Of a DNA stretch of 64,000 nt, positions 37,328 through 56,806 are shown in pieces (position 1 is the first letter of the stretch; every line of letters starts with the position of its first letter). The position numbers were made by a program, and so were the translations under genes. The stretch lies in contig CASFSG010000068.1 in assembly GCA_949297305.1 (NCBI GenBank), positions 19,833 to 83,832 on the forward strand, read 5' to 3'. The notes beneath the pieces are model-generated. The model was not told the origin of the DNA, ran no database searches, and worked only from the letters and a program-made list of their open reading frames with translations. The stretch is from an uncultured bacterium (GTDB lineage: Bacteria; Bacillota_I; Bacilli_A; RFN20; CAG-826).

Positions 37328-39550
37328 TTAATCTAAAGATAAAGACTTGATTAAATCAGGAATATAATGTAGTTCTAAAATATAGTTTTTATTGACGATA
37401 AATGAACGAAAAATAAAATTATCATTTTCGTCAAAATAACCAACTATAGACTGAGTAACATGATCTAACAAAACATATTCACTTAAAGTATTATTTTCTA
37501 AAGTAACAATGTGATTACGGATGGTGTTTTCGATAGAGAAAGAACCATGTATATCACTATTAGTGTTGACATCACTACTATTAATTTCTTGGCTTGCCCC
37601 ATAACGATTCTCCCAAATCGAAGGGATATTACTATGTAAAACCATTCCAGTTTCTGCGTCATGATCTAATGTGATATCACTACCATATAGCTTTACAAAG
37701 AAGTCCGTGTGGCGATAGACATAAAAACTAAAACTGCCATTTTCATAAATTAATAAAAAGTCGAAGATATGATAATAAAGTTCACTTTTGACCGAAAAGA
37801 AATTTTGGCCATTAATATTAGATAATGAAAAATAATCAGCGTATGGAACAAACTCCTGCGTAGTCGATGAGCCTTGTTCGATTGGGACTAAGATACTATC
37901 AGTAGGTTCATTAAATGAAATACCCGAAATGTAATATTCTCCAAAACGAAGTTGAAATGATTTATTCACATCGTCACTTAAATCAATGTTTCGCACTAAA
38001 TAGGCGTAAGGCATATTAACTAAATTGGTATGGGAAAAATTCGCACTGGAAGGATAAACGCTTTCAATATAATCATTATAATTGCCGCTTGTATCTATTC
38101 CTTCAATAATTTTAATATCGGTGACTTTCTCAAACCCGATAACTAAAGGCGCTCGATTATTTCCCATATGTCCATGACTAGAATGCAAGCCATCACCTGA
38201 ATCACCGTAGGCTTTATTATACTTAATAATGTTTTTAGCACTTATAGAATCAAAATTATTAAAAGATAACTTATTATAAAATTCATCTAAATCGATATTT
38301 CTTTCGCGTACACTACAATTTTGACCATTATAACCAACCGCGATGTAAAAATTATATAACCCTTGGCCATATAGCTTTACAATATCTTCGCTAGGTATTT
38401 CAAATACATTATTATTCCATTCGTTTCCGCTATAATCATCTTTTTTCATCCAGTGGATGCTAATTTTTTTATTACTATCAAGTTGAACATTATACGAAAC
38501 TGCTAAGCTAATATTAGATATTACATGATTTTCATCAAACCAACCACCAGTTGTATAAGTAATATTTTCATGCGTTTCACCTGTAAAAACAAAGCGTTTG
38601 ATGTCTCTATCATCGTTAACTTTTATATTTATACGTGTACTGTCATTATTAGCATAAAAATCATAAGTTCCTTCTCCAACAAAATAAGGATATAAACGAA
38701 TAACGCCATCATCATCCGCATAGTTAGCGGGATTTTCTAAAATATCAAAAATACATTGATTATCACTATTTCTAAACATTGATTGAATGAGGCTATATCC
38801 ATCTTCTTGATCAACTGGCATCTCGCCATTAAGCAACTTATAGGTCCAACCAGCAAAATAATAAACATAATAGTTGCCAGGATCATTCATCGAACATAAT
38901 GGATCGACGATATATTGGTTATATAAATAGGATGATAACTGTTCAACACCTTCAAACTTAATTGGTAAAAAGCGGCCATCGTCAAGATTTTTATTAGGCC
39001 AATAACCGAAACGTTCTTGCCGATACATGTTTCGAGGATATCGACCTTCGCCGTAATTGTTATACTGGCTGTTAATTTTTTCTTCATCTACTACCCCATA
39101 ATCTCGTCCATTAATTTCCCATGATTTACCATAAATTGTATCAGGGTCATTTCTATCATTATAAGAGTTAACATAGTAATTAGGAGCAGTGCTTCTACTA
39201 CCGATAGCAAGCGATCTATCATAATAATCATTATTAGTATTACCGACTCGCGTTAAGCCACCACCATTATTATCCGCTAAAAGGTAGCCGTCATATTCTT
39301 CGGGCTTTTCACCGAATATGCTGGTGTCCATATATAGTAAAGAAGGAAAAAAATAAATATCGTAAGTCGGCATGTCAACTTTTGTTGAACTAGCAAAAGT
39401 ATAATTTTCAGCAATATCATCGATGCGCACATCAGTGTCGATAGTTGTCTCATCTTTCGTCGTTTCAAAATAAAACAAAGAATACGCGCTTAGAGGTAGC
39501 ATCATAAAGATTGGAACAATCAATAAATACTTCAATAATCTTTTCTTCAT
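37328..39550 (-). CDS. large secreted Tyr/Asn/Asp-rich protein with a SipW-class-like signal; fourth gene of the SipW operon
   Basis: 740 aa. N-terminus MKKRLLKYLLIVPIFMMLPLSAYSLFYFETT. Its ATG directly follows the TAG of the upstream gene. No known domain recognised. Confidence 0.6.
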   Translation of the reverse strand: MKKRLLKYLLIVPIFMMLPLSAYSLFYFETTKDETTIDTDVRIDDIAENYTFASSTKVDMPTYDIYFFPSLLYMDTSIFGEKPEEYDGYLLADNNGGGLTRVGNTNNDYYDRSLAIGSRSTAPNYYVNSYNDRNDPDTIYGKSWEINGRDYGVVDEEKINSQYNNYGEGRYPRNMYRQERFGYWPNKNLDDGRFLPIKFEGVEQLSSYLYNQYIVDPLCSMNDPGNYYVYYFAGWTYKLLNGEMPVDQEDGYSLIQSMFRNSDNQCIFDILENPANYADDDGVIRLYPYFVGEGTYDFYANNDSTRINIKVNDDRDIKRFVFTGETHENITYTTGGWFDENHVISNISLAVSYNVQLDSNKKISIHWMKKDDYSGNEWNNNVFEIPSEDIVKLYGQGLYNFYIAVGYNGQNCSVRERNIDLDEFYNKLSFNNFDSISAKNIIKYNKAYGDSGDGLHSSHGHMGNNRAPLVIGFEKVTDIKIIEGIDTSGNYNDYIESVYPSSANFSHTNLVNMPYAYLVRNIDLSDDVNKSFQLRFGEYYISGISFNEPTDSILVPIEQGSSTTQEFVPYADYFSLSNINGQNFFSVKSELYYHIFDFLLIYENGSFSFYVYRHTDFFVKLYGSDITLDHDAETGMVLHSNIPSIWENRYGASQEINSSDVNTNSDIHGSFSIENTIRNHIVTLENNTLSEYVLLDHVTQSIVGYFDENDNFIFRSFIVNKNYILELHYIPDLIKSLSLD

Positions 39551-40207
39551 CTAAATGACCTCAACATAAGCTTCAATAGTCACAAAATGATTTGAAGTAT
39601 TTAAAGAAGCGACCAAAGCTTTATAACTATCTATATCGTGGGGCTTAACTTCCATAGAAGCGTATTGAAAATAATCGAGAAGATTGATTGTTAATGTCAT
39701 TGTATTAGGATCGTATTCTTCGCCAAAACTAGTAAACGATATCGCCTCATTAGGGTCATTTTCATCAACGAGGGAATTATATAAACTAGTCGTAGTGATG
39801 ATTGGTGAACCATCAATTTCAAAACCATTAATAATAAATCTTATTTTTAAATTATATTGGTAAGTGGCAAACTCTTCAGAAGGAAGAAATTGGATGCTGA
39901 ATTGATTTAATAAGGATAAACCAAAATAACCATCCATATCGATGATATTTTCATCATATATTTTTTGATAGAAATTCAAGCCATCGCTTAACGAAGAGGG
40001 GTTATTTCCTTCTTCAAAGATAATAAAATTGGGAGCATCGATAAGAAAATCACCAAAATTACCAAGGCCTTTCAAATCGACATTTACATTAAAAGAAGCT
40101 TCTATGTTATCTGAGGCACCATCGATAAAAAACCAGCTGCTTAAACCAGCGCCTACAAGAGTAATTGTTCCGCCTACCCCAATTAATAATGACGATAATT
40201 TGAACAT
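39551..40207 (-). CDS. TasA/camelysin-sized secreted protein with a SipW-cognate-type signal peptide (minor subunit candidate)
   Basis: 218 aa. N-terminus MFKLSSLLIGVGGTITLVGAGLSSWFFIDGASD. The start shares one base with the sipW stop (TAATG). Confidence 0.6.
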   Translation of the reverse strand: MFKLSSLLIGVGGTITLVGAGLSSWFFIDGASDNIEASFNVNVDLKGLGNFGDFLIDAPNFIIFEEGNNPSSLSDGLNFYQKIYDENIIDMDGYFGLSLLNQFSIQFLPSEEFATYQYNLKIRFIINGFEIDGSPIITTTSLYNSLVDENDPNEAISFTSFGEEYDPNTMTLTINLLDYFQYASMEVKPHDIDSYKALVASLNTSNHFVTIEAYVEVI

Positions 40208-41151
40208 TAATTTATTTGCTCCTTGTCAAGTTTTGTAGCTAAATATTTTAGACGTTTTGAATAATCGCGGTCGATCAATTCTTCCTGCACTTCTAAATTG
40301 ACAAGAAACACCAAGGCAAGTGTCATCGCAATGATGCCAATATTAGATTGTAAATAAGTGATCATCGCACCCCAAAAGAGGCTTTGATAACCATCATAAA
40401 TTCCGATGACATTATCAAACGAGACACCTTTTTCAAAAGAATATGAGCCATTATTCGCATCACCTTTAAAAGTTAAAAGGATTTCGCCATCACTACCTTC
40501 GTTTTTCTCAATCAAACGATGAACATAAATTAAATCATTAGCCTTAAAAGCTACAACATCATAAATATTTAACTCATCAACACTAGTAACGCGCTTAACA
40601 TTAATTAAGGCATATTGTTCAATTTGATTATCTAAATTATTTTCTTGAATGTAAGTATTTTCTTTATGAACAACCGACATCGAAGGTGTTTTGATAGTCA
40701 AATAGGTCGTATCATTAATAAAGAGCATATCGCCATTCACGCGATAAGTAATGGAAGTAATCATCAAAGCGATAATAAAAGCAGCAAAGACACCATAAAG
40801 GGATAAAAATACAATCTTTGATATTTTGGATATTTTCTCCTTTTTAGCGATTAGTTCAAGGTAAGAAGCAGGTTTCTCGCTTTGAATAGTCTCCTTACTT
40901 TCAACTTTAATAGCAGAATTTTTATTCGTTAAATTATTCCACCAAACGCTAAGTTTGATAGGATTATCGACTTTAGAATGTTTTTTGCCAGTTAAATCAT
41001 CGATGAGCTTTTGGTCTTCGTGACCATTTTTAATATGTTCTCTTTTATATTTTGCATAGACAAAATAAAGCAAAGAAAAAGTCACAGTCATCGCAATGAT
41101 GACAGTGATGGAAACAAAGAAAGCAATTCTAATTAAATTCTCATTACTCAT
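40207..41151 (-). CDS. sipW: ER/archaeal-type (S26B) signal peptidase I, SipW-like, with an N-terminal extension
   Basis: Blocks TPSMS (Ser), YDVVAF, VHRLIE (His), TFKGDANN, and a C-terminal TM helix. An extra ~130-aa N-terminal region has a TM helix plus a charged linker. ATG at 41151; the track ORF starts with TTG at 41163. Confidence 0.75.
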   Translation of the reverse strand: MSNENLIRIAFFVSITVIIAMTVTFSLLYFVYAKYKREHIKNGHEDQKLIDDLTGKKHSKVDNPIKLSVWWNNLTNKNSAIKVESKETIQSEKPASYLELIAKKEKISKISKIVFLSLYGVFAAFIIALMITSITYRVNGDMLFINDTTYLTIKTPSMSVVHKENTYIQENNLDNQIEQYALINVKRVTSVDELNIYDVVAFKANDLIYVHRLIEKNEGSDGEILLTFKGDANNGSYSFEKGVSFDNVIGIYDGYQSLFWGAMITYLQSNIGIIAMTLALVFLVNLEVQEELIDRDYSKRLKYLATKLDKEQIN

Positions 41152-41207
41152 CGCACGAAACAATAATTAATTATTAATAATAAATAGAGAGCTTACTTGA
41201 ACACTAA

Positions 41208-41888
41208 TTAGTTATTAGTAGCAAAAGTAGCCGCAAAAGTAATAGTAATGTCACCAACAGTAGCTAAAGCTGTGGACATGGAATTATAAGCTTCCGTATT
41301 AGTAGGCTTTTTACCAGTGACATATTGGAATAATTCGTTAACACCATCAGTTGTATTCATATCAACATTTAAATCAACAACATATTCGTTGCCCGAAGGG
41401 CTTAGAGGGAAACTACTAGTACGAACGAATGTTTTATCACCAGTAGTAGTATCAGCGCCTTTAGTCCAAGTAGCACTATTTTTAACAGTCACATAATTTG
41501 CTAAAGCACTAGGAATGGTAATAGTTGTTGTGATGGTAGGAAGCGTACCAGCTGAATTTAATTCATCATAATCCGATTCAGAAATGGTATAACTAGCTGC
41601 TAAATCACTAACAACAGCGTCATCACTACTAGTATTAACAACCGAGATACCTTTAGTAACATCATCTTTATTAGCAAAGCCACCTTGATCGAGAACTAGC
41701 TTTAATGTTACACCACTATCATTGACGGTGATTTTACCAGTGCCATCAGCTAATTCAGTTAATTCGACGTCCATATTAACAGTGCTATCAACATCGTCAA
41801 CGCCAAAATACCAAGCCGAGAAACCTGCACCAACAACAGCTACTAAGCCAAGAGTTGGGGCTAATAGAGCGGTAAGTTTTCTTAACAT
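41208..41888 (-). CDS. TasA/camelysin-sized secreted protein with a SipW-cognate-type signal peptide (major subunit candidate)
   Basis: 226 aa. N-terminus MLRKLTALLAPTLGLVAVVGAGFSAWYFGVDD. T/S/A/G/V-rich and visibly more GC-rich than its neighbours. Strong SD AAGGAGG 7 nt before the ATG. Confidence 0.65.
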   Translation of the reverse strand: MLRKLTALLAPTLGLVAVVGAGFSAWYFGVDDVDSTVNMDVELTELADGTGKITVNDSGVTLKLVLDQGGFANKDDVTKGISVVNTSSDDAVVSDLAASYTISESDYDELNSAGTLPTITTTITIPSALANYVTVKNSATWTKGADTTTGDKTFVRTSSFPLSPSGNEYVVDLNVDMNTTDGVNELFQYVTGKKPTNTEAYNSMSTALATVGDITITFAATFATNN

Positions 41889-41920
41889 TGTTTTTCCTCC
41901 TTCTTATGTTAAGTATTTAA

Positions 41921-41948
41921 ATAATATAAGAGCCCCCCCCTCTGTCAA
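41921..41948 (-). promoter_or_regulatory. sigma-70-type promoter of the SipW operon with a G8 tract in the -35/-10 spacer
   Basis: The minus strand reads TTGACA GAGGGGGGGGCTCT TATATTAT. -35 is at 41943..41948, G8 at 41933..41940, and the -10 candidates are TATATT and TATTAT (41921..41926). Confidence 0.6.
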
Positions 41949-42344: not shown

Positions 42345-43169
42345 ATGTTTATTAAAAATAAAATTTGTGAAAAATGTCAAAAAGGTTACGATAATCATCT
42401 CGATTATTGTCCCCATTGTAAAGAAAATAATCAGACTCGCGATCGCAAAAGATTTGAAGGAGTTACTTATTACGAGTTTTGGCGACAAATAATCATCTTT
42501 GTTATCGGCGCTTTTTTATTGAGTGTCGTCGCAACAATTATTTCCGCAATTTTTTCATCCTTTGATTTAAATGAGTTAAAGGCCACTGCTATCATTAATT
42601 TTCTTACTTATGCGATTGTATTTGTCGCTCTACTTTTATCGCTACTACCTGAATATCGACCTTTATTAAAAAGCTTTAAGGGTTATAAGCCTTATGTTTT
42701 TGCGCTAGCTGGGCTAGGCGCTATTTTAATGTTCAATTATGTCTATCTTACCATCATCGGCTTAATTTACCCAATTAGCGATAATGCGAACGAGTCAGCA
42801 ATTAATTCTATCGTTCCAATGTATCCTATTTTGTCGATTTTAATTTTTGGCATCGTTGGACCACTAGTGGAAGAAATGACTTATCGCTTAGGACTATTTT
42901 CCTTTTTTAAACGCATCAATACAATCTTAGCCTACGCTATTACAATGATTATTTTCGCTTTGATTCATTTCGATTTTTATTCCTTTACTAGCGGCACTTA
43001 CATTAATGAATTAATCAATTTGCCTAGTTATTTAGCTGCCGCTTTTGTTTTAACATTCCTTTATGATAAATTCGGCTTTGCTTCTAGTAGTCTATGCCAT
43101 ATCGCTAATAATATGCTTTCGATAATGATGACAATCATCATGTCTTTACTACCAGAAAATGTTCTTTAA
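42345..43169 (+). CDS. CPBP-family intramembrane glutamic protease with N-terminal double-CxxC zinc ribbon
   Basis: CEKCQ...CPHCK, then a polytopic region with EEMTYRLGLF (EExxxR), FALIHF and HIANN motifs. Confidence 0.8.
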   Translation: MFIKNKICEKCQKGYDNHLDYCPHCKENNQTRDRKRFEGVTYYEFWRQIIIFVIGAFLLSVVATIISAIFSSFDLNELKATAIINFLTYAIVFVALLLSLLPEYRPLLKSFKGYKPYVFALAGLGAILMFNYVYLTIIGLIYPISDNANESAINSIVPMYPILSILIFGIVGPLVEEMTYRLGLFSFFKRINTILAYAITMIIFALIHFDFYSFTSGTYINELINLPSYLAAAFVLTFLYDKFGFASSSLCHIANNMLSIMMTIIMSLLPENVL

Positions 43170-43171
43170 AT

Positions 43172-44059
43172 ATGGAAGTTATCGTCCCAAAATACAAATT
43201 TCAATTTTTAAATGAATTCGCTTTAAAAATCATCGCCATAATCACGATGACAATTGATCATCTAGGCGTAATGTTGTGTTCTTTTAATAGCCAAGATTCC
43301 ACCCAATATTTAATTGGTTATATCTTCCGTGTCATCGGGCGAATTGCCTTACCACTATTTATCTATATGCTCGTGGAAGGAATGATTAAATCAACTCATC
43401 GCGGCAAATATTTATTGCGATTAGCCATCATGGCTATCGCCATCGATATAGCGATGATTTTCATTTATTATTTTATCAATCACGACAATAGCTTAATCCC
43501 TGCTTTCAATGATTTATTGATCAATGGAACAATCTTATATTTTTTATTGCATCAAAAGAAAAGCCTAAGATTTTTAGCAATATTTCCTCTATTAATTTCT
43601 GCTTTATCTTTTGGGGTCGATGTTTATGAAACATTAAACCCTAATATCATCATCGAATGGTTTCCGTTTTATTTAAGAGGTGATTATTCGCTTTTTGCAA
43701 CTTTCCTCACTTTAGGAATCTATTTAGGACATATGCTAGCTAAAAGAAAAACGCAAGAATTTTTAGGAAATGTTCCTTTTGATAATTCCTATCGAAATGG
43801 TTATTATCAAGTTTATGTCAACATTATAAGCATTGTCGTTTTATTAGTAATTAACATCATCGTTTATTTTTTATCTTATTTAAAGATTGATCCATACTAT
43901 TCAAATATTCAAACTTGGTCAATCTTCGCTGGCATTTTCTTTTTCTTTTATAATGGCTATCGTGGTTATAACACAAAATGGTTTAAATATTCCTCCTATT
44001 TGTATTATCCAATGCATATTATTATCATTTATTTAATTTTTTATTTAATATATATGTAG
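43172..44059 (+). CDS. TraX-family membrane protein
   Basis: N-terminal LKIIAIITMTIDHLG block and a polytopic 295 aa. Confidence 0.7.
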   Translation: MEVIVPKYKFQFLNEFALKIIAIITMTIDHLGVMLCSFNSQDSTQYLIGYIFRVIGRIALPLFIYMLVEGMIKSTHRGKYLLRLAIMAIAIDIAMIFIYYFINHDNSLIPAFNDLLINGTILYFLLHQKKSLRFLAIFPLLISALSFGVDVYETLNPNIIIEWFPFYLRGDYSLFATFLTLGIYLGHMLAKRKTQEFLGNVPFDNSYRNGYYQVYVNIISIVVLLVINIIVYFLSYLKIDPYYSNIQTWSIFAGIFFFFYNGYRGYNTKWFKYSSYLYYPMHIIIIYLIFYLIYM

Positions 44060-44074
44060 AAAGGAGTTAGAAAG

Positions 44075-44377
44075 ATGTTGATTCATTTAGAAAATGAAAA
44101 AGATTTTAAAAACTTGATTAAGGAAGGGAGAGTTTTAATAGATTTTTACGCTGATTGGTGTGGACCTTGCCAAATGCTTGCGCCAATCTTAGAACAATTA
44201 GCTAACGAAGACAAAGATTTATCAATCATCAAAATAAATGTCGATGATTTCCCTATGATTGCTAAAGATTATCATATCTCCAGCATTCCTTCATTAATCT
44301 ATTATAAAAATGGTGAAATCGTTAAAAAACAAATTGGTTTCTTGCCTTTAAGAAGCATCAAAGAATTAATTGCTTAA
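44075..44377 (+). CDS. trxA: thioredoxin
   Basis: 100 aa with the WCGPC active site. Confidence 0.9.
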   Translation: MLIHLENEKDFKNLIKEGRVLIDFYADWCGPCQMLAPILEQLANEDKDLSIIKINVDDFPMIAKDYHISSIPSLIYYKNGEIVKKQIGFLPLRSIKELIA

Positions 44378-44429: not shown

Positions 44430-44503
44430 GCAGGCGTAGTTTAGTGGTAAAACATTAGCCTTCCAAGCTGAATTTGCGAGTTCGATTCTCGTCGCCTGCT
44501 CCA
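44430..44503 (+). tRNA. tRNA-Gly (anticodon UCC), CCA encoded
   Basis: Hand-folded cloverleaf. Acceptor GCAGGCG/CGCCTGC; D arm GTTT-AGTGGTA-AAAC; anticodon arm TTAGC-CTTCCAA-GCTGA; T arm GCGAG-TTCGATT-CTCGT; discriminator T plus CCA. Confidence 0.9.
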
Positions 44504-44510
44504 GAGCGTT

Positions 44511-44538
44511 AAAAACACCGATAAATTCGGTGTTTTTT
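44511..44538 (+). terminator. rho-independent terminator after tRNA-Gly
   Basis: AAAAACACCG-ATAAATT-CGGTGTTTTT stem-loop running into a T-run. Confidence 0.8.
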
Positions 44539-44546
44539 GTTTTCGT

Positions 44547-44577
44547 GAGACACTTATGAGACACTTTTGAGACATTT
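44547..44577 (+). repeat. three direct repeats GAGACA(C/T)TT phased at 11 bp
   Basis: Copies at 44547, 44558 and 44569, lying between the tRNA terminator and the terminator of the phage-side operon. Confidence 0.7.
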
Positions 44578-44650
44578 TTAAAAATTTTGCTAAAATAACT
44601 ATGACCAATATTGTTATAGCAATATTTGGCAACCGACAATTTTTGTTTGC

Positions 44651-44686
44651 AAAAAGAAAACGATATTGTTGTTTTTCGCAATACCG
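44651..44686 (-). terminator. rho-independent terminator of the minus-strand ATPase/vWA operon
   Basis: On the minus strand: CGGTATTG-loop-CAATATCG (one mismatch) followed by TTTTCTTTTT, 20 nt after the stop at 44707. Confidence 0.55.
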
Positions 44687-44706
44687 TTTGTAATTATTCA
44701 TTCGAT

Positions 44707-44970
44707 TTAATCGTTGTTTTTTGCAAAATTATTTGCTTTAATAATTAAGTCTTTAATATAATTTTTTGCGGACTTTTGAGCTTTTAAGATGTCGATAATT
44801 TTTTCTTCGCATTTATCGGCTGGATTTAATTTAATATTTATTTGGTATAATTTAGAGTAGTATCTTTTTTGAGCCGCTTTTCCTTTCGAAGTTTTAAAAT
44901 ATTCATTATTCCTTTTTCTACGAACTTTCAATTTTTCTTCATTAGATAAGATTATTTTCTGCTTAACCAC
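44707..44970 (-). CDS. small basic protein, unknown function
   Basis: 87 aa. GTG start preceded by AAGGAGG at 7 nt. Overlaps the upstream gene by 19 nt. Lys/Arg-rich N-terminus. Confidence 0.5.
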   Translation of the reverse strand: MVKQKIILSNEEKLKVRRKRNNEYFKTSKGKAAQKRYYSKLYQINIKLNPADKCEEKIIDILKAQKSAKNYIKDLIIKANNFAKNND

Positions 44971-45497
44971 TTTTGAGCCTCCTTATCAGATAATCTTCTT
45001 TTCGTTGTTTTTTCGATCTCGCATAAATCAAATCTTTTTCTATCACCATGTGCGTTAATGATGAGCCAATTTCCTTTCTTTATAGCATTCGCGAAATATT
45101 CTACTTTAATATCCATTTTTTTATGTCTTGCGTAAGGGTGAAAAATCTTAATTTCATACGAGCCATGATAGTAAGTATTTTTTTCAGCTTCTAATTTAGA
45201 TTTTTTATTTTCAAAAATCGTTATATTGTCTAAATCGATATCTTCGATTATCTCATAAAAATCGGTTTCATTACAATACTTGCTGGTATGATGCCAACTA
45301 GAATATTTTAAACAATTATTTCTTAAAGTTTCTAAATTAAATTTCTTGAGTTTTTCGGCAATTTCTTCAGGATACGCTTCAAGAATTGCTTGTTTAGACC
45401 AATTGCTCACCGGCTTTTCGCCTTTATCGTAAGCTTCAACCGCACGATTACTCATAGAATATCCGGAATATCCAGAATTTTTATTTTTTGTAAACAT
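44952..45497 (-). CDS. hypothetical protein
   Basis: 181 aa with SD AGAGGAAA. N-terminal MSNRAVEAYDKGEKPVSNWSK and SWHHTSKYCNETDFY blocks that I recall seeing in Firmicutes mobile elements, but cannot name. Confidence 0.5.
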   Translation of the reverse strand: MFTKNKNSGYSGYSMSNRAVEAYDKGEKPVSNWSKQAILEAYPEEIAEKLKKFNLETLRNNCLKYSSWHHTSKYCNETDFYEIIEDIDLDNITIFENKKSKLEAEKNTYYHGSYEIKIFHPYARHKKMDIKVEYFANAIKKGNWLIINAHGDRKRFDLCEIEKTTKRRLSDKEAQKWLSRK

Positions 45498-45524
45498 TTT
45501 TATTTTCCTCTTTGTGAGAGTTCT

Positions 45525-47021
45525 CTAAAAGAGAACCCTCATGCTTTCTAAAATATTTTCTTTTAAACGCAAAGCGTAATTGACATTTTCGCAAATAATG
45601 CGTTTGACTTGTTTGAGGCTTTTTGTTAAAGGCTCAACATTGCTTTTTTCAACAATCATTATCGTTTGATTGTTGTTAAAATATGGCTTTAAAATTGATA
45701 CAGGAGTTTTATGGAGGAGGTTTGTTCGTGCGTAAACTTCTTGACCGTCAAATAATACGATATCAATAATTTTAGCATTCTTGTCTTGATGAGTTTTTTT
45801 GTAAACCGTTTTAAGATTTTCAAGAGTTTCTTCAAATTGGCCGATGGCATAGTTTCCGAAAACAGAATTAGAACGCTTGTCAGATGCGATACTCAAGCGA
45901 CCATTCTTCATTCTAATTACATTAAATGTAAAAGATGGTATTTCTTTTTCAATATGCTTGAGCGCTTCGCTAATACAATTAAAGGCGAAATCGTTATGCT
46001 CAAACGACCCAGAATTGTCGAGCCAGATATTTAGTATTTTTCCGTTAAGCATAGATTTTTGAGCTTGAGCATTCGAACTATTTCTTTCGAAAACGCGCCC
46101 CTCGTTGTTGAAATCTTTTAATAATTTCTTGACCGACAATTTACCAGAATAGCCATAGGCTATATTTTTGGAAGCCGGTTTTTGCCCGCCAATTTTTGAA
46201 AATATGATTGAGCGAGCTTTTAATTCGAAATCGAAATTCGCAGGAATAACGCCCGTCTCTTGATAGTATTTATTATCGATAATATGCTTAATAATTTCTT
46301 CTTGCTCTTCGCGGTTGTTCTCTGGTTGAGCTTCTGGTTGAGCTTCTGGTTGAGACGCGGCAATATATTGCGTCCATAATCCATATAAGCCATAAATAAC
46401 GCGAGCATGTAATTGAGCATTCTTTCGTTTCTGATACGCTCTAATAAACAAGTCTAATAGCTTGAGCCCTGCATCTAATATTATTATATTGTCTAAATCG
46501 TGAGTTCTTACGATGTAGAAAAAGAAATTTTCGAAACTATTCAATGCTCTTTTTTTGTCAAACGGAGAAATATTTCGCGAGAATTTCGTAAACGAAAACC
46601 CCATGAAATAACCGTTGAGAATGGTTTCAATGAACTCGTCTTCGAGAACATTTAATAAATATTTAATATTTATACTCGATGATGTGCAAGAGCGTAAAGT
46701 GCTGGCGACCTGATTGATATACTTTGGAGTTAGTGTGTTTATATCGGTGAGTATTGCGTGGCTGACCTCGTGATATACGAGCATTCTTATTGTTTCTTCG
46801 AATTCGAATTGGGTGTTTAAGATTTTGTAAAAATCATAAACATTTTTAACAGCGATTGTAATTTGAGAATTTCCGTTTTTATCAAACGAGATATAACTCG
46901 TTTCGGCGATATTGTCTACATTGACTTTAAGAGTTTTAACTCTTAAATAATAGGCGATTGGCAAGGTCGGAGCGATTGCCGCGACCTTGTCCTTAACTTC
47001 TTCAAAAGTAAACTTTTGCAT
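45525..47021 (-). CDS. putative Zn-metallopeptidase (HExxH) fused to a vWA domain, DUF2201-like
   Basis: YHEVSHAIL (HExxH) and LEDEF in the N-terminal half, a QPEAQPEAQPE linker, and a C-terminal vWA with MIDAS LDNSGS. SD AAAGGAGG. Confidence 0.7.
   Translation of the reverse strand: MQKFTFEEVKDKVAAIAPTLPIAYYLRVKTLKVNVDNIAETSYISFDKNGNSQITIAVKNVYDFYKILNTQFEFEETIRMLVYHEVSHAILTDINTLTPKYINQVASTLRSCTSSSINIKYLLNVLEDEFIETILNGYFMGFSFTKFSRNISPFDKKRALNSFENFFFYIVRTHDLDNIIILDAGLKLLDLFIRAYQKRKNAQLHARVIYGLYGLWTQYIAASQPEAQPEAQPENNREEQEEIIKHIIDNKYYQETGVIPANFDFELKARSIIFSKIGGQKPASKNIAYGYSGKLSVKKLLKDFNNEGRVFERNSSNAQAQKSMLNGKILNIWLDNSGSFEHNDFAFNCISEALKHIEKEIPSFTFNVIRMKNGRLSIASDKRSNSVFGNYAIGQFEETLENLKTVYKKTHQDKNAKIIDIVLFDGQEVYARTNLLHKTPVSILKPYFNNNQTIMIVEKSNVEPLTKSLKQVKRIICENVNYALRLKENILESMRVLF
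46319..46354 (-). repeat. 12-nt in-frame tandem repeat (about 3 copies) encoding the (QPEA)n linker
   Basis: Plus strand: tctctggttgag cttctggttgag cttctggttgag. Confidence 0.8.
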
Positions 47022-47048
47022 TCTAATTTTCCTCCTTTAAATAACTTG

Positions 47049-48257
47049 TTATTTAACCTCGACATTATTGAAGCCGACCCATTCAGGCGTGAAATCTTTA
47101 TTAAAGTTAATAACTTTAAACGCTCTTGAAATTAACGCATCAGGGAGCGTAAATCTGCCGTCATTAGTTTTTTCATTCATGGTAAATATTACCATGAAGC
47201 CTTCTTTAATTTCGATATCGCCGAAACCATGATTGTCGTTGAGCGTCTTGCTATTATCTAGCAAGGTTTGGAGCACTCTTAAACAATCGGGGTTTAAATT
47301 ATTGACTTCGTCAATAATAACGCATCGCCCTTCTTTGGCAGCAATGCCGATTGCAGTTAGTTCGTATCTTTTAGATACGGGGTTGTAAGCACTAAATAAA
47401 TCTTCAGCCATTAAGCCCATGCTTGCTTGAAATGTTAATACATTTCTAGCATCGGCTAGTTTATCGTGCATCACCGCGATACGATGAGCCTCGGTAGTCT
47501 TACCTAATCCAGGTTTACCAAAAAAGATTTGCAATCTTTTATTAACGGCTTTTGTAAAGTTTAAATTTCGCCATTCAATAATTCTATTATTGAGGTTTTC
47601 CCACTCGATTGATTTAGATTTATTATCTAAATCAGCCACAATGTTCTCGTCAACGCCCGATAAAATCATGCATGATTTTATATAATTGATGCAATCAGGA
47701 GCGTCTTGCGATAGCAAGACATTTATTTGACGATTGTCTAACTCGTAGTAAAAATCTTTCATAAAAGATTTTAAATCTTGAGTTAGTTTCGAAAATTGTT
47801 TACAATATGCATTGTAATCGGTTTTAGTTAATTTAACTAAACCCGTGTTGGACGCTTGCTTTGCGGTTGAGGCTGGCGTCTTTTTTTCTTCAGTATCAAT
47901 AGATACTGGTTTCTTGACTTTTGGCGATTTTTGATTACTACTATTAAAAATAGTAGTATCAACGCTTTCGTCTTTGGGACTATTAGAAGAGTTTTTGGCT
48001 AAATATTTTGAAAAATATTTATTGCCGTTAGTTCGAGCCCCTTGAATAAAAGATGCGGCTCCAGATAATGATTTAAAAGAAATATCTTCTTTTAAAGTAA
48101 TCTTATCGTCTTCGCAATATTTATCTCTTAGAGATAACATATCTTTGCCGCTGGACTTAATTCTATCTACGATAGAACCTTTCTTGATGGTTATATTATA
48201 ACCATTAGCTGTTTGCTCAATTGTTAATTGAGACTTCTTAATTGTTAATTCTTTCAT
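47049..48257 (-). CDS. AAA+ ATPase (AAA_5/MoxR/CobS-like) with an N-terminal DUF4357-like domain
   Basis: Walker A GKPGLGKT and Walker B VIIDEVNN. N-terminal ISFKSLSGAASFIQGARTNGNKYF. Start set at MKELTIKK (GGAGG-N7-ATG); the track ORF extends to 48320 across the predicted promoter. Confidence 0.7.
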   Translation of the reverse strand: MKELTIKKSQLTIEQTANGYNITIKKGSIVDRIKSSGKDMLSLRDKYCEDDKITLKEDISFKSLSGAASFIQGARTNGNKYFSKYLAKNSSNSPKDESVDTTIFNSSNQKSPKVKKPVSIDTEEKKTPASTAKQASNTGLVKLTKTDYNAYCKQFSKLTQDLKSFMKDFYYELDNRQINVLLSQDAPDCINYIKSCMILSGVDENIVADLDNKSKSIEWENLNNRIIEWRNLNFTKAVNKRLQIFFGKPGLGKTTEAHRIAVMHDKLADARNVLTFQASMGLMAEDLFSAYNPVSKRYELTAIGIAAKEGRCVIIDEVNNLNPDCLRVLQTLLDNSKTLNDNHGFGDIEIKEGFMVIFTMNEKTNDGRFTLPDALISRAFKVINFNKDFTPEWVGFNNVEVK

Positions 48258-48303
48258 ACATTTTCCTCCATAAATCAACAACGCGATTTCGTTTCGCAAT
48301 CTT

Positions 48304-48333
48304 ATAATATAATAAAGCAATTAATCTTGTCAA
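48304..48333 (-). promoter_or_regulatory. sigma-70-type promoter for the ATPase/vWA operon
   Basis: The minus strand reads TTGACA-N16-TATATT, about 45 nt upstream of the ATG at 48257. Confidence 0.45.
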
Positions 48334-49130
48334 GAAAATTTTTATTTTTGTAAAGATTTCTTGCTCGTTTATAAATATTTTATAAAAAAATTTAAACTTT
48401 TTTTGTCAAATTTATGTATTTTTTCGAGTTAACTATGGTTAACAATAGATGGAGTAAACTATCATTATTGAAGATATCTTCTTTAATTTTTAAAAAGCGA
48501 TTTCATCATTTTTCAAAGAACGACATAAGATATATTTAATAATATCTTAAATTTTTTCTCATAAAATTCTCACGCATTTAGAATATATCGATTTTATCGA
48601 TATTTTTAAGTCATCGGAGCAGTTCATAGGGTTTGAATTAGAAAAAATACTCGATTTTTTCTCGCCTTATTGGTGGAAACACCCCTCCCCTAGTCCCCTC
48701 TTTTGATATGGGGTATATTCATATTTAATCTTTCATTCTCCCCACAAACCTAAATTTTTGACTTCATTTCGCCAAATTACTCAAGTATTTATACTACAAA
48801 TTAAGTCCTTATAATGCTTTATTTAAAATATTTTTTATGAACAATTTACATATTTTTAAGTGCTCACACGCATACACGCATGCGGTCTAACTAATTCCAG
48901 GTATTTTATATAAAAATTAGATTATTCATAGATAGAAATATCTAGCATATATATAACGAGTGAGTATATATAAGATTAATTCTTCAATTAAGAAAGAGTT
49001 AATAAAATAAAATAATTAGGGAAAACATTAAACCTTTCTTATTAAGAAATTCAAACAACTTTCTTGAACCACAACTTTTTTTGTGCTACTATTTAGTCGA
49101 AATTGATAATTATAAATATTTTTAGTGTTC

Positions 49131-49562
49131 ATGAAAAAGAAAAATACTGCAAAAGAAGTAATCGACCAACTAACAAATTCCACCACTTTAAGCGACGAAA
49201 ATAAAAAACTCTGCACGAAAATATTTTTGGAACTTATGCCAGATGAAACTAGAAAAGTATTATCTGGAACTAACTATTACGAAAATGGTCGAGAACTTAA
49301 AATCGAAGATGCTAAAAAAGCTTTAGCGAAAATGTTGTGTGGTTCATTCACATATAAAGATGGTAAACAATTATCGCCAAAGCAATTGATTGATATGTCT
49401 GTCATTGGCTATACTTTAGCAAATCCAACCCCTCAGAATGTTAAAGCTCTTTATGAAACCGCAGGGTTGATAACGAAAAATGTCGATATCACCACCAACG
49501 GAAATTCTATTGATGCTTTTTTGCATTCTTTAGATTTATCTAACAACACGGAAAATAAATAG
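49131..49562 (+). CDS. small phage protein, possible small terminase subunit (by position only)
   Basis: 143 aa, immediately upstream of the large terminase. No motif recognised and no obvious SD. Confidence 0.3.
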   Translation: MKKKNTAKEVIDQLTNSTTLSDENKKLCTKIFLELMPDETRKVLSGTNYYENGRELKIEDAKKALAKMLCGSFTYKDGKQLSPKQLIDMSVIGYTLANPTPQNVKALYETAGLITKNVDITTNGNSIDAFLHSLDLSNNTENK

Positions 49563-49564
49563 AA

Positions 49565-51361
49565 ATGGCGAATAAAACAAGAAACTTCTCAATTTTTGTC
49601 CCCGATAGTAAAGGACTAAAACACGAAATACGCGTTTTAGATTTTATTGAGAACTTCTTATATATCCGACCAAAACCAATCAATTTATTAGAAGAAATTA
49701 GTGAAGGGGAAAATGAAAACTCTTCTTTAATCAAGTTTAAATTAAATCCACAACAAATGCGTTTCTATCTTCAAATTGAAGACGACTGGAAAAATTATCG
49801 CCCGATACGATACGCAATTTTAAAAGCTCGCCAAATTGGTTTTTCTACTTTAATAGCAGCAATTATTTTTACTGTGACGATTTATTCTCCGTATCGCGAA
49901 AGTCTAATCATCAGTGATAAAGACGACCACACTTCGAGAATATTTCAAATGTATCAACGCTTTTACGACCATTTGCCTGAACAAATTAAACCAAAACTCG
50001 ACTCAAACAAAAGAGGGACAATTATTTCGACTTCGTATGAGGCGACAATCAGCGTAGAAACCGTTAGTGACGATTTAGCTAGAGGTGCTACTTTAAAGTG
50101 CGCGCACGCCAGCGAATACGCAATGTGGCGAAAACAACAAGAGGCGATGGCATCTTTAAACTCAGCTGTTGCTTTATCGCCTGACACAATGTTATTTATT
50201 GAAACCACCGCTAAAGGAATGAATTTTTTTCGCGATTTATTTATCAACGCCTACGAAAACAATAATTCCAATCTAAAGGCTTGGTTTGAACCTTGGTATA
50301 AAAACAAAGACTATCGCAATCCGTATTACGGTCAAGAACTTTATCATAGCGGAACTTATGGAGATGAAATAAAACTTTTAGACGAATATCAAGACAAAGG
50401 AATGACTAAAGAAAGTCTAATGTGGCGAAGAGCACAAATTGATGCGATGGGTTTAGATTTGTTCCATCAAGAAAATCCTACTTATCCTGAAGAAGCGTTT
50501 TTATCAACTGGAGTAAGCGTATTTAATTCAATGATGGTAAATAAACGCATTCAAGAATTAAGAAATTCGCATCAAAAAATAATTAAAGGCAATTTTGAAT
50601 ATGACGCGACTTGGAGTGAAAATGGTCAAAGAATAAAGATTGATAATATCCGTTTTGCTGAAAATCCTAATGGTGATGTTTCAATTTTTGAAAAACCAAT
50701 TGAGGGCTATCCTTATGTAATTGGTGCAGACCCTGCTGGATTGAATGGCAAAGATTATTTTGTAGCACAAGTAATCCGCCACGATGGCAATAATCGCAAA
50801 CAAGTCGCGGTCTTTAGAAAACAAAAATTAGACCCTGATGAATTCGGAATGCTGCTTTATTGTTTGGGTTCATACTACAACAACGCTTTAATCGGTGTTG
50901 AAATCAATATGGGGCAAAACCCTAATAAAAGACTGGCACAAGCAGGATATCGAAAAATATACGTTCGCCAAAACATACAAGCATACGACGAACCCACATT
51001 AAATCAATACGGTATTTCTACTCAAGGCTCTAATAAATGGGATATGGTCAACACACTTAAAGAAAGATTTAGAGAGCACGAAGAAGAATTTAACGATTTA
51101 ACAACTTTAAATGAAATGCTAACTTTTGTTGTTTTAGATATTGGCTCAAGAGGAAATTATATCGTAGGCGCGGCAACTCAAAGCGACCACGACGACACAG
51201 TTATGGCGCTTGCAATTGCTCATACTATCGCTTTAACTAACCAACAAACAACAAGTGTTAATGTAGCAATACAAAAGCAAAAAGATATTCCCTTTGCGCT
51301 TAAAAATAATAAACAATCGAAAGGACACGGTTTATGGAAATCAGCAACTATATCATATTGA
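49565..51361 (+). CDS. terL: phage terminase large subunit
   Basis: ATPase block ILKARQIGFST (Walker A-like) and LIISDKDD. C-terminal RNase H-like nuclease with VIGADPAG and SDHDDTVMALAIA. Confidence 0.85.
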   Translation: MANKTRNFSIFVPDSKGLKHEIRVLDFIENFLYIRPKPINLLEEISEGENENSSLIKFKLNPQQMRFYLQIEDDWKNYRPIRYAILKARQIGFSTLIAAIIFTVTIYSPYRESLIISDKDDHTSRIFQMYQRFYDHLPEQIKPKLDSNKRGTIISTSYEATISVETVSDDLARGATLKCAHASEYAMWRKQQEAMASLNSAVALSPDTMLFIETTAKGMNFFRDLFINAYENNNSNLKAWFEPWYKNKDYRNPYYGQELYHSGTYGDEIKLLDEYQDKGMTKESLMWRRAQIDAMGLDLFHQENPTYPEEAFLSTGVSVFNSMMVNKRIQELRNSHQKIIKGNFEYDATWSENGQRIKIDNIRFAENPNGDVSIFEKPIEGYPYVIGADPAGLNGKDYFVAQVIRHDGNNRKQVAVFRKQKLDPDEFGMLLYCLGSYYNNALIGVEINMGQNPNKRLAQAGYRKIYVRQNIQAYDEPTLNQYGISTQGSNKWDMVNTLKERFREHEEEFNDLTTLNEMLTFVVLDIGSRGNYIVGAATQSDHDDTVMALAIAHTIALTNQQTTSVNVAIQKQKDIPFALKNNKQSKGHGLWKSATISY

Positions 51362-51663
51362 CAAGAAAAGAGCATAAAAAATTCCATGATTTTAAAAAAT
51401 TTTTAGAAATCATTGGATTAAACGAAAATGATTTATTAAGCCGTTTAAATAATTTAGAAAAAGAAAACAAAGAGCTGAAACAAAAAGTTCTCGTTTTGGA
51501 AAAAGCATTAAATTCACAAGAGGAATATTACAAAAATTACATCAACGAAAGACTTGACACTCTCGTGCTTAATATCCGCAAGAATTTACAAGAAACAACC
51601 AAAAACACTTTGTCTGTAATGCAAGCATCTTTTAAAGGAAACAAGATAAATGAAAACATCTAA
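51334..51663 (+). CDS. small coiled-coil phage protein
   Basis: 109 aa. Overlaps both the terL 3' end and the portal start. Heptad-like LNNLEKENKELKQKVLVLEKAL. Confidence 0.45.
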   Translation: MEISNYIILTRKEHKKFHDFKKFLEIIGLNENDLLSRLNNLEKENKELKQKVLVLEKALNSQEEYYKNYINERLDTLVLNIRKNLQETTKNTLSVMQASFKGNKINENI

Positions 51664-53821: not shown

Positions 53822-53907
53822 AGCATACTTAGTATGTTTTGATAAATCGCAGGTGCGCAGCGTAAATGCACATTCACTACCCTTGTAGTGTTCAAGAAAG
53901 GGGGAAT

Positions 53908-54750
53908 ATGGAAAACCAAACCATAAATGCTGAGAAAGTGAAACAAGAAAACACTAATCAGGCGACAACACAAACGGAAACACCATCTTCCGAGGCTGAA
54001 ACTAATACTCAAAACGCTGAAGGCAAGGACGCTGAAACAACACAAAAAAATTCCGCTAACGAAGGCGATGACAAAAAAGTTGTTGATGAAGAGCAGAAGC
54101 AAAGTAAAGAATTAGACGCTAAATACGCAAAATTACGACACGAAAGAGATGTTGCAAAAGCCAAAGAGGCGGGCGACAAAGAAGGTTATAAGCGTGCAAG
54201 AATTAAAAGCGTAGGTGGTAAAAATCCTTACTCTGATAATTCACCTATAGAGACAGATGAAGATTATGAGTTTTACGAGCTTCAAGACGAAGTTAAAAAT
54301 CGTGGTCTTGACCCAAAAAACCCTTTAGATTGTGAGAAAGTTCGCCGCGAAATTGCTAAAAAGGCAAGAGAAGATTATGAAAAATCTTTAAGCGAAGAGC
54401 AAAAAGCACAAAACAAAGCCGACAAAGAAGTAAGAGATTATCTTGCTAAAGGTCATACCACCAAAGAACTTAATTACTATTTGAACAATCCACAATTTCA
54501 AGAGTTTAGCAACGACTTGCTCGGTGTTCTCCCCTTAGAAAATGTTATTAACAAATTTAATAAGATTTATGGAGAAATGCACAAAGAGATTGAAGAACAA
54601 ATTAGTAAAGAAGCTCGAAACAAATCTAATCCAGGTTCTTCAAGTTCGATAGAAAGTAATCCGATCAAAAAATCTATTCAACAAATGAGCGACGAAGAAT
54701 TCAAAACCTATATTGAAGAAATTAAGAGTGGGAAGCGAAAAATCAATTAA
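53908..54750 (+). CDS. phage scaffolding protein
   Basis: 280 aa, highly charged Lys/Glu-rich helical protein directly upstream of the capsid gene. Start set at MENQ with SD AAAGGGGG. Confidence 0.6.
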   Translation: MENQTINAEKVKQENTNQATTQTETPSSEAETNTQNAEGKDAETTQKNSANEGDDKKVVDEEQKQSKELDAKYAKLRHERDVAKAKEAGDKEGYKRARIKSVGGKNPYSDNSPIETDEDYEFYELQDEVKNRGLDPKNPLDCEKVRREIAKKAREDYEKSLSEEQKAQNKADKEVRDYLAKGHTTKELNYYLNNPQFQEFSNDLLGVLPLENVINKFNKIYGEMHKEIEEQISKEARNKSNPGSSSSIESNPIKKSIQQMSDEEFKTYIEEIKSGKRKIN

Positions 54751-54766
54751 CAGGAGGAATTTATAA

Positions 54767-55789: not shown

Positions 55790-55816
55790 TAGATAAGATT
55801 TTTAATACGAAGTTTT

Positions 55817-55839
55817 GAGTGTTCTTCTTAAAAACACTC
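55817..55839 (+). terminator. hairpin after the capsid gene (possible attenuating terminator)
   Basis: GAGTGTT-CTTCTTAAA-AACACTC; the T-run is only weak. Confidence 0.3.
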
Positions 55840-55858
55840 TTAAAAGGAGAATAAGACA

Positions 55859-56107
55859 ATGGCAGAAAAAGGACAAAATACTAGAAACAAGAAGGAAAGA
55901 ATTCCTTACTTTGTTCCAGTAGACCCATTAAATGAATGGGACAAAGACAAAAAAGTTATCGTTAATGGCAAACTGTATGCAATTAAACGCGGCAGGCAAG
56001 TTTTAATACCTCAAGAAGTTTATGAAGTATTAAAGCAAGAGGAAGAAAACGAAAATAAAATTCGTGAAACTTACGAAGAAAGAAAAAACGAATTTGCGAA
56101 AATGTAA
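55859..56107 (+). CDS. small phage structural-module protein
   Basis: 82 aa with SD AAAGGAG; charged C-terminus. Confidence 0.45.
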   Translation: MAEKGQNTRNKKERIPYFVPVDPLNEWDKDKKVIVNGKLYAIKRGRQVLIPQEVYEVLKQEEENENKIRETYEERKNEFAKM

Positions 56108-56123
56108 ATAAAGGAGATTGTAT

Positions 56124-56795: not shown

Positions 56796-56806
56796 CAGGT
56801 ATAGCA

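Follow-up and report, generated by a model that had tools for sequence, protein, structure and literature searches.

In the 64,000-nucleotide stretch of contig CASFSG010000068.1 (assembly GCA_949297305.1, an uncultured bacterium of the Bacilli_A) that we analysed here, hereafter the window, four consecutive minus-strand open reading frames (ORFs; positions 37328-41888) form a conserved cassette in which a signal peptidase of the endoplasmic reticulum (ER)/archaeal type is encoded among three secreted proteins of 226, 218 and 740 amino acids (aa). All three secreted proteins begin with a common signal, and the two smaller ones are paralogues. The cassette peptidase probably processes these neighbouring secreted proteins, a coupling suggested by synteny in 79 of 82 sources together with the common signal. 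The full statement, that the cassette is a dedicated-peptidase secretion system whose products form a surface polymer, is plausible and in our judgement falls a little short of probable; it draws on the analogy with TasA and on an N-terminal segment that is conserved, strand-like, disordered in the structure model and common to the three partners. The kind of system, a dedicated SipW-type peptidase with cognate secreted proteins, is known. What is new is the substrate family, the three-helix peptidase branch with its conserved cytoplasmic motif, and the giant 740-aa partner, for none of which did we find an annotation or a mention in Pfam, NCBIfam, the Protein Data Bank (PDB) or a literature search.

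Gene layout, signal peptidase and common signal

The four genes of the cassette, as given in the ORF listing, are as follows:

41208-41888, minus strand: gene for the 226-aa protein, first in the cassette, proposed major subunit
40207-41163, minus strand: peptidase gene, giving 318 aa with the TTG at 41163 as start or 314 aa with the ATG at 41151
39551-40207, minus strand: gene for the 218-aa protein, proposed minor subunit
37328-39550, minus strand: gene for the 740-aa protein, proposed nucleator, tip or adhesin

The original prediction had described four abutting minus-strand genes in a single operon, and its coordinates and junctions were reproduced here, with a spacer only between the first two genes (44-56 nucleotides (nt), with no terminator-like hairpin). 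The peptidase stop overlaps the start of the 218-aa gene (TAATG), and the TAG of the 218-aa gene abuts the ATG of the 740-aa gene with zero gap. For the peptidase, the ATG at 41151, the alternative to the TTG at 41163, is the start in a 96%-identical homologue (P0026). Two expression signals precede the first gene:

41921-41948, minus strand: sigma-70-like promoter, TTGACA-16 nt-TATTAT, 11/12 match, about 33 nt upstream of the 226-aa gene
41889-41906, minus strand: Shine-Dalgarno region AAGAAGGAGGAAAAACA, directly 5' of the ATG of the 226-aa gene

Because of the gene spacing and this one high-quality promoter site, the four genes look like one operon, probably read as one transcript from the promoter at 41948-41921, as originally proposed. 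The strongest Shine-Dalgarno sequence among the four genes is that of the 226-aa gene (AAGGAGG), and no recognisable Shine-Dalgarno sequence was found before the start of the peptidase gene. Such signals would favour expression of the first gene. This gene is also richer in GC than its surroundings (0.377 vs 0.323 for the window), as had been noted along with its strong ribosome-binding site. Its GC content at third codon positions (GC3) is low (0.22), and the raised GC is due to the Thr/Val/Ala/Gly-rich composition of the protein (T 15.5%, V 10.6%, A 9.3%, and Gly-rich too) and not to GC3.

The peptidase contains the blocks IKTPSMSVV, YDVVAF, YVHRLIE and TFKGDANNG, and its main features map as follows:

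40459-40683, minus strand: catalytic core, with Ser161 at 40681-40683 (TPSMS), His215 at 40519-40521 (VHRL) and Asp235 at 40459-40461 (GDANN), codons checked
40996-41142, minus strand: N-terminal extension, with an extra membrane helix (41050-41142) followed by the motif NGHEDQKL (40996-41031), placed by hydropathy and charge flanks

In an alignment of 20 peptidase homologues, S161-M162, H215-R216 and G234-D235-x-N237 were invariant. Since this Ser/His/Asp arrangement is invariant in the peptidase family, the enzyme is assigned by its sequence to S26B (the ER/archaeal/Sec11/SipW type) and not to the LepB type with its Ser/Lys dyad. The profile of these 20 homologues matched human SEC11C (7P2Q; E = 1.8e-6) and SEC11A (7P2P; E = 7.3e-6), with the VHRV and GDNN blocks of the human proteins lining up with the peptidase His and Asp. 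In the NCBIfam scan, the sole match was the SipW equivalog NF046067 (E = 2.3e-9), at a score of 37.1 bits that falls below the model's cut-off of 190. No Pfam model matched the peptidase, those for S24 and S26 included; neither a Pfam peptidase domain nor a name was found among 24 homologues, and nine longer homologues from related loci (some with C-terminal extensions) gave no Pfam domain, fused or peptidase. Hydropathy revealed three hydrophobic segments, namely the N- and C-terminal anchors and the extra N-terminal helix. An ER/archaeal-type enzyme with these blocks, a C-terminal transmembrane helix and an additional N-terminal one had been predicted, and each element was recovered, from the invariant catalytic residues and the SipW and SEC11 matches to the three segments; the suggested check for a P-type LepB identity came out against LepB, with a general-base His in place of the Lys. 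Judged by these comparisons, the peptidase is a divergent three-helix branch that lies outside the curated models.

The extra helix precedes a Lys/Arg-rich, presumably cytoplasmic stretch bearing the conserved motif G-x-E-D-x-x-L, which is kept even in the distant Clostridia versions of the enzyme. Residues F29, Y36, G47, E49 and D50 were at least 90% conserved in the 20-homologue alignment. At the other end of the protein, the homologues P0037 and P0040-P0045 extend by about 100 residues (alignment columns ~400-478) to a second hydrophobic helix ending VGTGFCSWRF, which by its sequence appears to be a peptidase-substrate fusion or a read-through. A regular-expression search for fused cognate signals in the long peptidases of related loci returned none.

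The signal common to the partners was sought across the window. The pattern [FLY]S[ASL][WF][YF]F, which was defined after seeing the data and which recurs in dozens of other genomes, had exactly three matches in the 76 ORFs that are 70 aa or longer, each match lying at residue 22-23 of one cassette partner, against 0.04 matches expected from shuffled proteins. This agrees with the earlier observation that the three partners carry one aromatic signal motif. Its assignment to the SipW-cognate class also held, as residue 24 is small, residue 26 is W or F, and the signal of the small-protein family aligned in register with the TasA signal peptide in hhalign. Across the close small proteins, the Clostridia small proteins and the giants, residue 22 is G, A or V, residue 24 is always small (S, A, G or C) and residue 26 is always W or F; at residue 25, most giants have Tyr, Leu or Ile. 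A cut after residue 24 is preferred because it is the only site that satisfies the -3/-1 rule in all subgroups. With the cut marked by a slash, the most likely predicted sites are GFS/AWYF in the 226-aa protein, GLS/SWFF in the 218-aa protein and AYS/LFYF in the 740-aa protein (LPLSAYS/LFYF). For the first of these, the signal peptide is:

41817-41888, minus strand: signal peptide of the 226-aa protein, residues 1-24 MLRKLTALLAPTLGLVAVVGAGFS, a single N-terminal hydrophobic segment with the predicted cut S24/A25 and the alternative A25/W26

A cut at this position would leave an aromatic residue at P2', as in TasA (A/AF). According to one report, an aromatic P2' is handled poorly by LepB, making TasA dependent on SipW (PMC10269814).

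These data bear on a simpler account, in which the peptidase is the organism's general signal peptidase and the neighbours are incidental. No LepB-type motif was detected in the 64-kb window, which agrees with such an account but is weak support, as the window covers only a small portion of the genome and is uninformative for the rest of it. Reduced Bacilli also often have few signal peptidases. Against this stand the synteny with a cognate-signal family in 79 of 82 sources across two classes, the confinement of the special motif to the neighbours, and the existence of peptidase-substrate fusions, and we regard an incidental association as highly improbable.

The secreted proteins and the spread of the cassette

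For the 226-aa protein, a word-indexed search of 5.8 billion proteins recovered 25 relatives, none of them named or with a Pfam domain. An exhaustive hidden Markov model (HMM) search of 1.84 billion cluster representatives found 694 clusters (50% identity) at E<=1e-3, of which 343 reached E<=1e-10 and 100 reached E<=1e-30. Among the 150 clusters listed, the majority were 180-350 aa long with near-full profile coverage, and a few were short fragments. Neither the 226-aa nor the 218-aa protein matched anything in scans of Pfam, NCBIfam and PHROGs, and a cluster look-up for family names found none. In all 123 of 123 family representatives, W26, F28, Q68, K194 and P195 were invariant, and the stretches V-G-[SAT]-G-F-[SA]-[AS]-W-x-F and L-D-Q-G-G...K-G-I were near-invariant. 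Alongside Q68 and Lys194-Pro195, residues D67, G69, Y132 and Y189 of the 226-aa protein were noted as candidate cross-link or interface residues.

An AlphaFold2 (AF2) monomer model of the 226-aa protein, built from the 25-sequence alignment, reached a predicted local distance difference test (pLDDT) score of 73.9 and a predicted template modelling (pTM) score of 0.70. Residues 50-226 were ordered, mostly beta with two helices, and residues 1-48 were disordered. The protein belongs to an unannotated family of ~200-300 aa beta-sandwich proteins. Its disordered part includes the following feature:

41745-41816, minus strand: conserved mature N-terminal segment of the 226-aa protein AWYFGVDDVDSTVNMDVELTELAD, candidate donor strand, pLDDT 27-39

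Within this segment, residues 39-44 alternate as [VI]-x-[VI]-x-[VI]-T among the 123 representatives, which is the periodicity of a beta strand. The segment that follows the predicted cut (to about residue 47) is the sole part common to the 226-, 218- and 740-aa proteins.

The 218-aa protein scored 119.7 bits against the iterated family HMM and aligned with the small-protein family in hhalign over residues 4-81 (probability 95.7%, E = 1e-8), and from this similarity it is identified as a paralogue of the 226-aa protein; genes of its type lie downstream of the peptidase in ~25 loci. The third partner had been described as a 740-aa Tyr/Asn/Asp-rich protein without a recognisable domain, a description that its composition (N 10%, Y 8.8%, S 8.8%, D 8.5%) and the library scans support, with no match in Pfam, NCBIfam, PHROGs or the PDB sequences. 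It had nine homologues in the 5.8 billion proteins and 27 in the fetched loci, where it was always the last gene. In hhalign, the similarity between the 740-aa family and the small-protein family was confined to residues 1-47, which comprise the signal and ~20 further residues (probability 89%). Its AF2 model had a pLDDT of 58, with a beta-rich C-terminal half at pLDDT 60-89, and Foldseek found nothing for it in the PDB at E<=0.001, the best match being SusF (E = 0.04, probability 0.25). In design, a subunit-like N-terminus on a different body, the protein is TapA-like, which is a functional resemblance and not homology; no TapA model matched it in NCBIfam or Pfam. An LPXTG-like motif or a C-terminal hydrophobic segment was found in none of the three partners.

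The distribution of the cassette was assessed by a combined pattern and tblastn scan covering 185,579 species, each represented by one genome, which placed peptidase relatives in 132 loci, and the best 80 of these 132 were retrieved for analysis of their context. Most of the 80 retrieved carriers were labelled gut or faecal. The close ones were labelled Mollicutes, Bacilli, Anaeroplasmataceae, Candidatus Onthovivens, Enterosoma and Caccosoma, and the distant ones Christensenellaceae, Candidatus Scatosoma and other Clostridia. In a local HMM search, 134 full-length members of the small-protein family adjoined the peptidase in 79 of 82 sources, and the order small-peptidase-small-giant was retained in ~24 species-level loci (within L001-L032). 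The flanking genes (an Rce1-like protease, TraX and thioredoxin on one side, an IMPACT-family protein and an Xaa-Pro peptidase on the other) were common only to the two closest relatives. Since the gene order is kept while the flanking genes change, the four genes constitute a self-contained cassette; the question of whether the module is conserved or patchy among relatives, raised in the original prediction, is answered in favour of conservation as a unit.

Variants of the cassette were also observed. Some lineages have up to six tandem small paralogues. In a group of Bacilli loci (L044 7247-12902, L042, L043, L048, L051, L053, L055 and L059), no giant follows the peptidase; its place is taken by a membrane-anchored AAA_5 ATPase (~605 aa), a ~477-aa protein and an ABC transporter (ATPase plus ~537-aa permease), and the window has none of these ATPase and ABC transporter genes. 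In Christensenellaceae/Clostridiales (L050 5522-10267, L058, L065, L068 and L071), a small-peptidase-small arrangement lies between spoIIGA-sigE and sigG, which hints at a link with sporulation in those Clostridia lineages. These five loci with the remote cassette are what would favour a reading of the products as sporulation-associated envelope or appendage proteins that build or decorate a surface layer of the spore or forespore. We consider this reading very unlikely: in the window and in close relatives, housekeeping genes flank the cassette and sporulation genes are absent from its vicinity, its promoter is of the vegetative sigma-70 type, and many carriers are labelled Mollicutes or Anaeroplasmataceae-like Bacilli, where loss of sporulation is common (PMC10868615). 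A full Bacilli-type cassette also occurs in 'cleanbin' assemblies (L010, L012, L014, L016, L018, L020, L022 and L032) labelled Oscillospiraceae, Bacteroides uniformis, Bacteroidales, Sodaliphilus, Lachnospiraceae, Alistipes onderdonkii, Prevotellaceae and Prevotella; these occurrences are probably mis-binned contigs and not a real presence in those taxa. A phage origin of the cassette was rejected, as a scan of the viral contig collection found no relatives of the family.

The proposed surface polymer and known systems

We propose that the 226-, 218- and 740-aa precursors would be exported through Sec and that each would be held in the membrane by its N-terminal hydrophobic helix, which ends in G-x-G-[FLY]-S followed by x-[WF]-[YF]-F. 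The cassette's own three-helix S26B peptidase (Ser161/His215/Asp235) would then cleave them on the outer face of the membrane, likely after the always-small residue 24, leaving the aromatic P2' residue at the start of proteins that, once released, would have neither a C-terminal anchor nor a sortase motif. The 226-aa beta-sandwich protein, presumably abundant in view of its strong ribosome-binding site, may polymerise through its conserved N-terminal segment, the part that is disordered in the monomer model, with the 218-aa paralogue serving as a minor or adaptor subunit. The 740-aa protein, in which the same N-terminal segment precedes an unrelated large beta-rich body, could act as a nucleator, a tip, an adhesin or the cell-proximal end.

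Several observations weigh against a surface polymer built in this way or make its details less certain. No TasA, camelysin, pilin or other filament family or fold was detected for any partner, so the polymer idea draws on analogy and on the disordered N-terminus. The register of the hhalign alignment with TasA places the cut one residue later, which makes the site ambiguous by one residue. Promoter-like sites occur across the region at chance frequency (33 found vs 33.2 expected), and promoter function is for this reason read from position and match quality alone; housekeeping genes downstream of the cassette, moreover, come after short gaps only. All 80 retrieved carriers are metagenome-assembled genomes. 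Finally, because related loci carry different accessory genes or lie in a sporulation context, the role of the cassette may differ between lineages.

The original prediction had gone further and identified the 226- and 218-aa proteins with TasA/camelysin, and this identification failed in every direct comparison, by family model, PDB profile and fold; the lack of a TasA/camelysin fold was among the outcomes that the prediction itself had named as refuting. Peptidase_M73 (PF12389) matched neither protein at E<=1 and had no match among the 25 + 123 members of the small-protein family (0 of 148). Searches of the PDB with the family profiles at E<=10 returned no TasA, only a chance match to a nanobody, and searches with single partner sequences matched nothing, in a PDB sequence copy confirmed by sequence to contain 5OF1 and 8AUR (the TasA query is identical to 8AUR). 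When the 226-aa model, a monomer built from 25 sequences, was compared with 350,542 PDB chains in Foldseek, nothing was found at E<=0.001, and 5OF1 and 8AUR were absent from the top 50; the best match was the p53 core domain (E = 0.05, TM-score ~0.25). The weak Foldseek matches (p53, SusF, phage tail proteins; TM-score <= 0.26) were dismissed as the background that beta sandwiches generally produce, and the BFVD viral library gave no match to the 226-aa model at E<=0.001. In hhalign, the family aligned with B. subtilis TasA over the signal residues 1-25 of each only (probability 46%). Against an alignment of seven TasA-family members (plasmid-borne 'TasA family proteins' of the B. cereus group), the probability was 34%, over columns 1-94 vs 1-75, the N-terminal third, which softens the negative outcome slightly. 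The small partners are not to be filed as TasA family members.

It is still conceivable that they are very remote members of the TasA/camelysin superfamily (AbpA, BsaA), with a jelly-roll donor-strand architecture that has diverged past ordinary detection. The 34% hhalign match passes beyond the signal into G-T-L and the following strands, the partners agree with that superfamily in signal class and in being associated with a SipW-type peptidase, and the archaeal AbpA-TasA relation itself needed the most sensitive methods (PMC9245690). The absence of any Peptidase_M73 match among 148 members, of TasA from the PDB profile searches and of both TasA structures from the top 50 of Foldseek, and the restriction of the direct hhalign match with TasA to the signal, argue against such kinship, which we judge improbable.

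A stronger competitor keeps the dedicated peptidase but has products that do not polymerise, such as monomeric or oligomeric adhesins, binding proteins or a loose coat, the aromatic N-terminus then serving only as a recognition element for the peptidase. The partners have no sequence or structure link to known filament subunits, the conserved N-terminal residues sit exactly on the predicted P' side of the cut, and the giant models as several beta-sandwich-like domains, as in many adhesins. Against this account, the strand-like conservation runs ~20 residues past the cut and is common to three otherwise different proteins. A highly expressed small subunit with a low-copy paralogue and a large partner is, furthermore, the typical design of a fibre or pilus, and there is no anchor of any kind that would keep monomers on the cell. 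On balance we consider secretion without polymerisation rather unlikely.

The surface polymer was further weighed against known systems, of which tapA-sipW-tasA of B. subtilis, the operon behind the TasA biofilm fibre, is an obvious point of reference. In both, a dedicated ER/archaeal-type peptidase is encoded among its own substrates by a gene that overlaps its neighbour, small residues close the signal and an aromatic residue stands at P2', and an abundant ~230-aa subunit is accompanied by a low-abundance accessory protein with the subunit's N-terminal segment, the abundances being proposed ones in our case. TapA and SipW are much scarcer than TasA in B. subtilis (PMC10151520). TasA takes its donor strand from the 11 residues that directly follow the SipW site; by mimicking this strand, TapA initiates the fibre (PMC9674648; PMC10151520). 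In contrast to that system, no TasA/camelysin sequence or fold could be detected in the substrates here, the genes run subunit-peptidase-paralogue-giant with a third, 740-aa partner, and the peptidase has an extra N-terminal helix, a G-x-E-D motif and a score far under the SipW cut-off.

The same composition is found in sipW-bsaA-bsaB-bsaC of Clostridium perfringens, where a SipW-type peptidase is encoded together with a pair of small paralogous matrix proteins and a large secreted protein of ~70-85 kDa, the secreted proteins all having signal peptides (PMC11580942). The two differ in that BsaA and BsaB are homologous to TasA and a von Willebrand A domain is present in BsaC, whereas the partners here have no known domain; the Asn-Glu-Lys isopeptide triad of BsaA is not identifiable here; and the peptidase gene comes first in C. 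perfringens and second in the window. The layout had been called novel, and it is less so than first claimed because sipW-bsaABC already has this composition, while the gene order and the protein families do differ. By analogy, then, the cassette resembles tapA-sipW-tasA and sipW-bsaABC in function without being demonstrably homologous to them, and its substrates form a family of their own.

Other systems share single features with the cassette. In AbpA/AbpB of the archaeon Pyrobaculum calidifontis, a small beta-rich subunit is likewise paired with a larger secreted neighbour, but AbpA is a TasA-like jelly roll served by the general signal peptidase (PMC9245690), and here no known fold was matched and the peptidase is dedicated. 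AbpA has an N-terminal donor strand, and AbpB has been proposed as filament starter and adhesin (PMC9245690). Sec11/archaeal signal peptidase I (MEROPS S26B; 7P2P, 7P2Q) has the same Ser, His (VHR) and Asp (GD.N) blocks; the cassette enzyme differs from it as a bacterial three-helix protein with a ~50-residue insertion between the Ser and His blocks. Sortase pilus operons such as spaA-srtA-spaB-spaC of Corynebacterium diphtheriae encode, in this order, a major subunit, the processing enzyme, a minor subunit and a large tip protein. The gene-order logic of the cassette is identical, but processing there would be by a signal peptidase that works on the N-terminus; with no sortase in the cassette, no LPXTG and no C-terminal anchor, a sortase-pilin reading was rejected. 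The type IV pilin reading was rejected as well, since the helix precedes G-x-G-F-S, Glu is missing at +5 and the peptidase is a Ser/His enzyme. A literature search on the signal class or on SipW in Mollicutes-like lineages returned nothing relevant.

Taken further, the polymer idea would make the cassette an example of a new class of signal-peptidase-dependent filament, with ~200-aa beta-sandwich subunits, a 740-950-aa nucleator or tip and a distinct three-helix branch of SipW-like peptidases. Its fold would be unrelated to TasA and to chaperone-usher, type IV, type V and sortase pilins, and it would be widespread among uncultured gut Bacilli (Mollicutes-like lineages, of which some reportedly lack sortases) and in Clostridia. 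We advance this extension tentatively and hold it to be doubtful.

Genomic surroundings and significance

Divergently upstream of the cassette (window 42345-44377, plus strand) lie genes for an Rce1-like (CPBP) intramembrane protease, a TraX-family membrane protein and a thioredoxin; the protease has a zinc-ribbon-like CxxC...CxxC at its N-terminus. These genes adjoin the cassette elsewhere only in the closest relative, L001, and are probably unrelated to it; a functional tie to them was rejected, since the flanks of the cassette are common only to the two closest relatives. Further on, a tRNA-Gly(tcc) at 44430-44503 is followed by a prophage-like block (window 44430-58000) with a terminase large subunit (49565-51361), a portal protein (51650-53821) and a capsid protein (54767-55789). 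The block looks like a strain-specific insertion, because the related locus L001 has other genes beyond the thioredoxin. Minus-strand genes at 45525-48320, situated between the tRNA and the genes for phage structure, encode an AAA_5/DUF4357 protein (47049-48320, 423 aa) and, adjacent to it, a domainless 498-aa protein; the prophage may carry these two as a defence pair, McrBC-like or of another kind.

To our knowledge, operons that combine a dedicated archaeal-type peptidase with fibre subunits have so far been known only for the TasA superfamily (TasA of Bacillus and BsaA of Clostridium). Here the same logic is joined to an unannotated family with at least 694 clusters at 50% identity, in at least 132 species-level genomes. 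The uncultured orders related to the carrier range from thin-walled to wall-less, and some are without sortases (PMC10868615). If the products form a surface polymer, they would represent a building block of a new kind for adhesion or matrix formation in abundant but little-known gut Bacilli and in Christensenellaceae-like Clostridia, including lineages that have thin or absent walls and no sortases (PMC10868615). A new branch of SipW peptidases would also be defined, and its conserved cytoplasmic motif hints at regulation or coupling.

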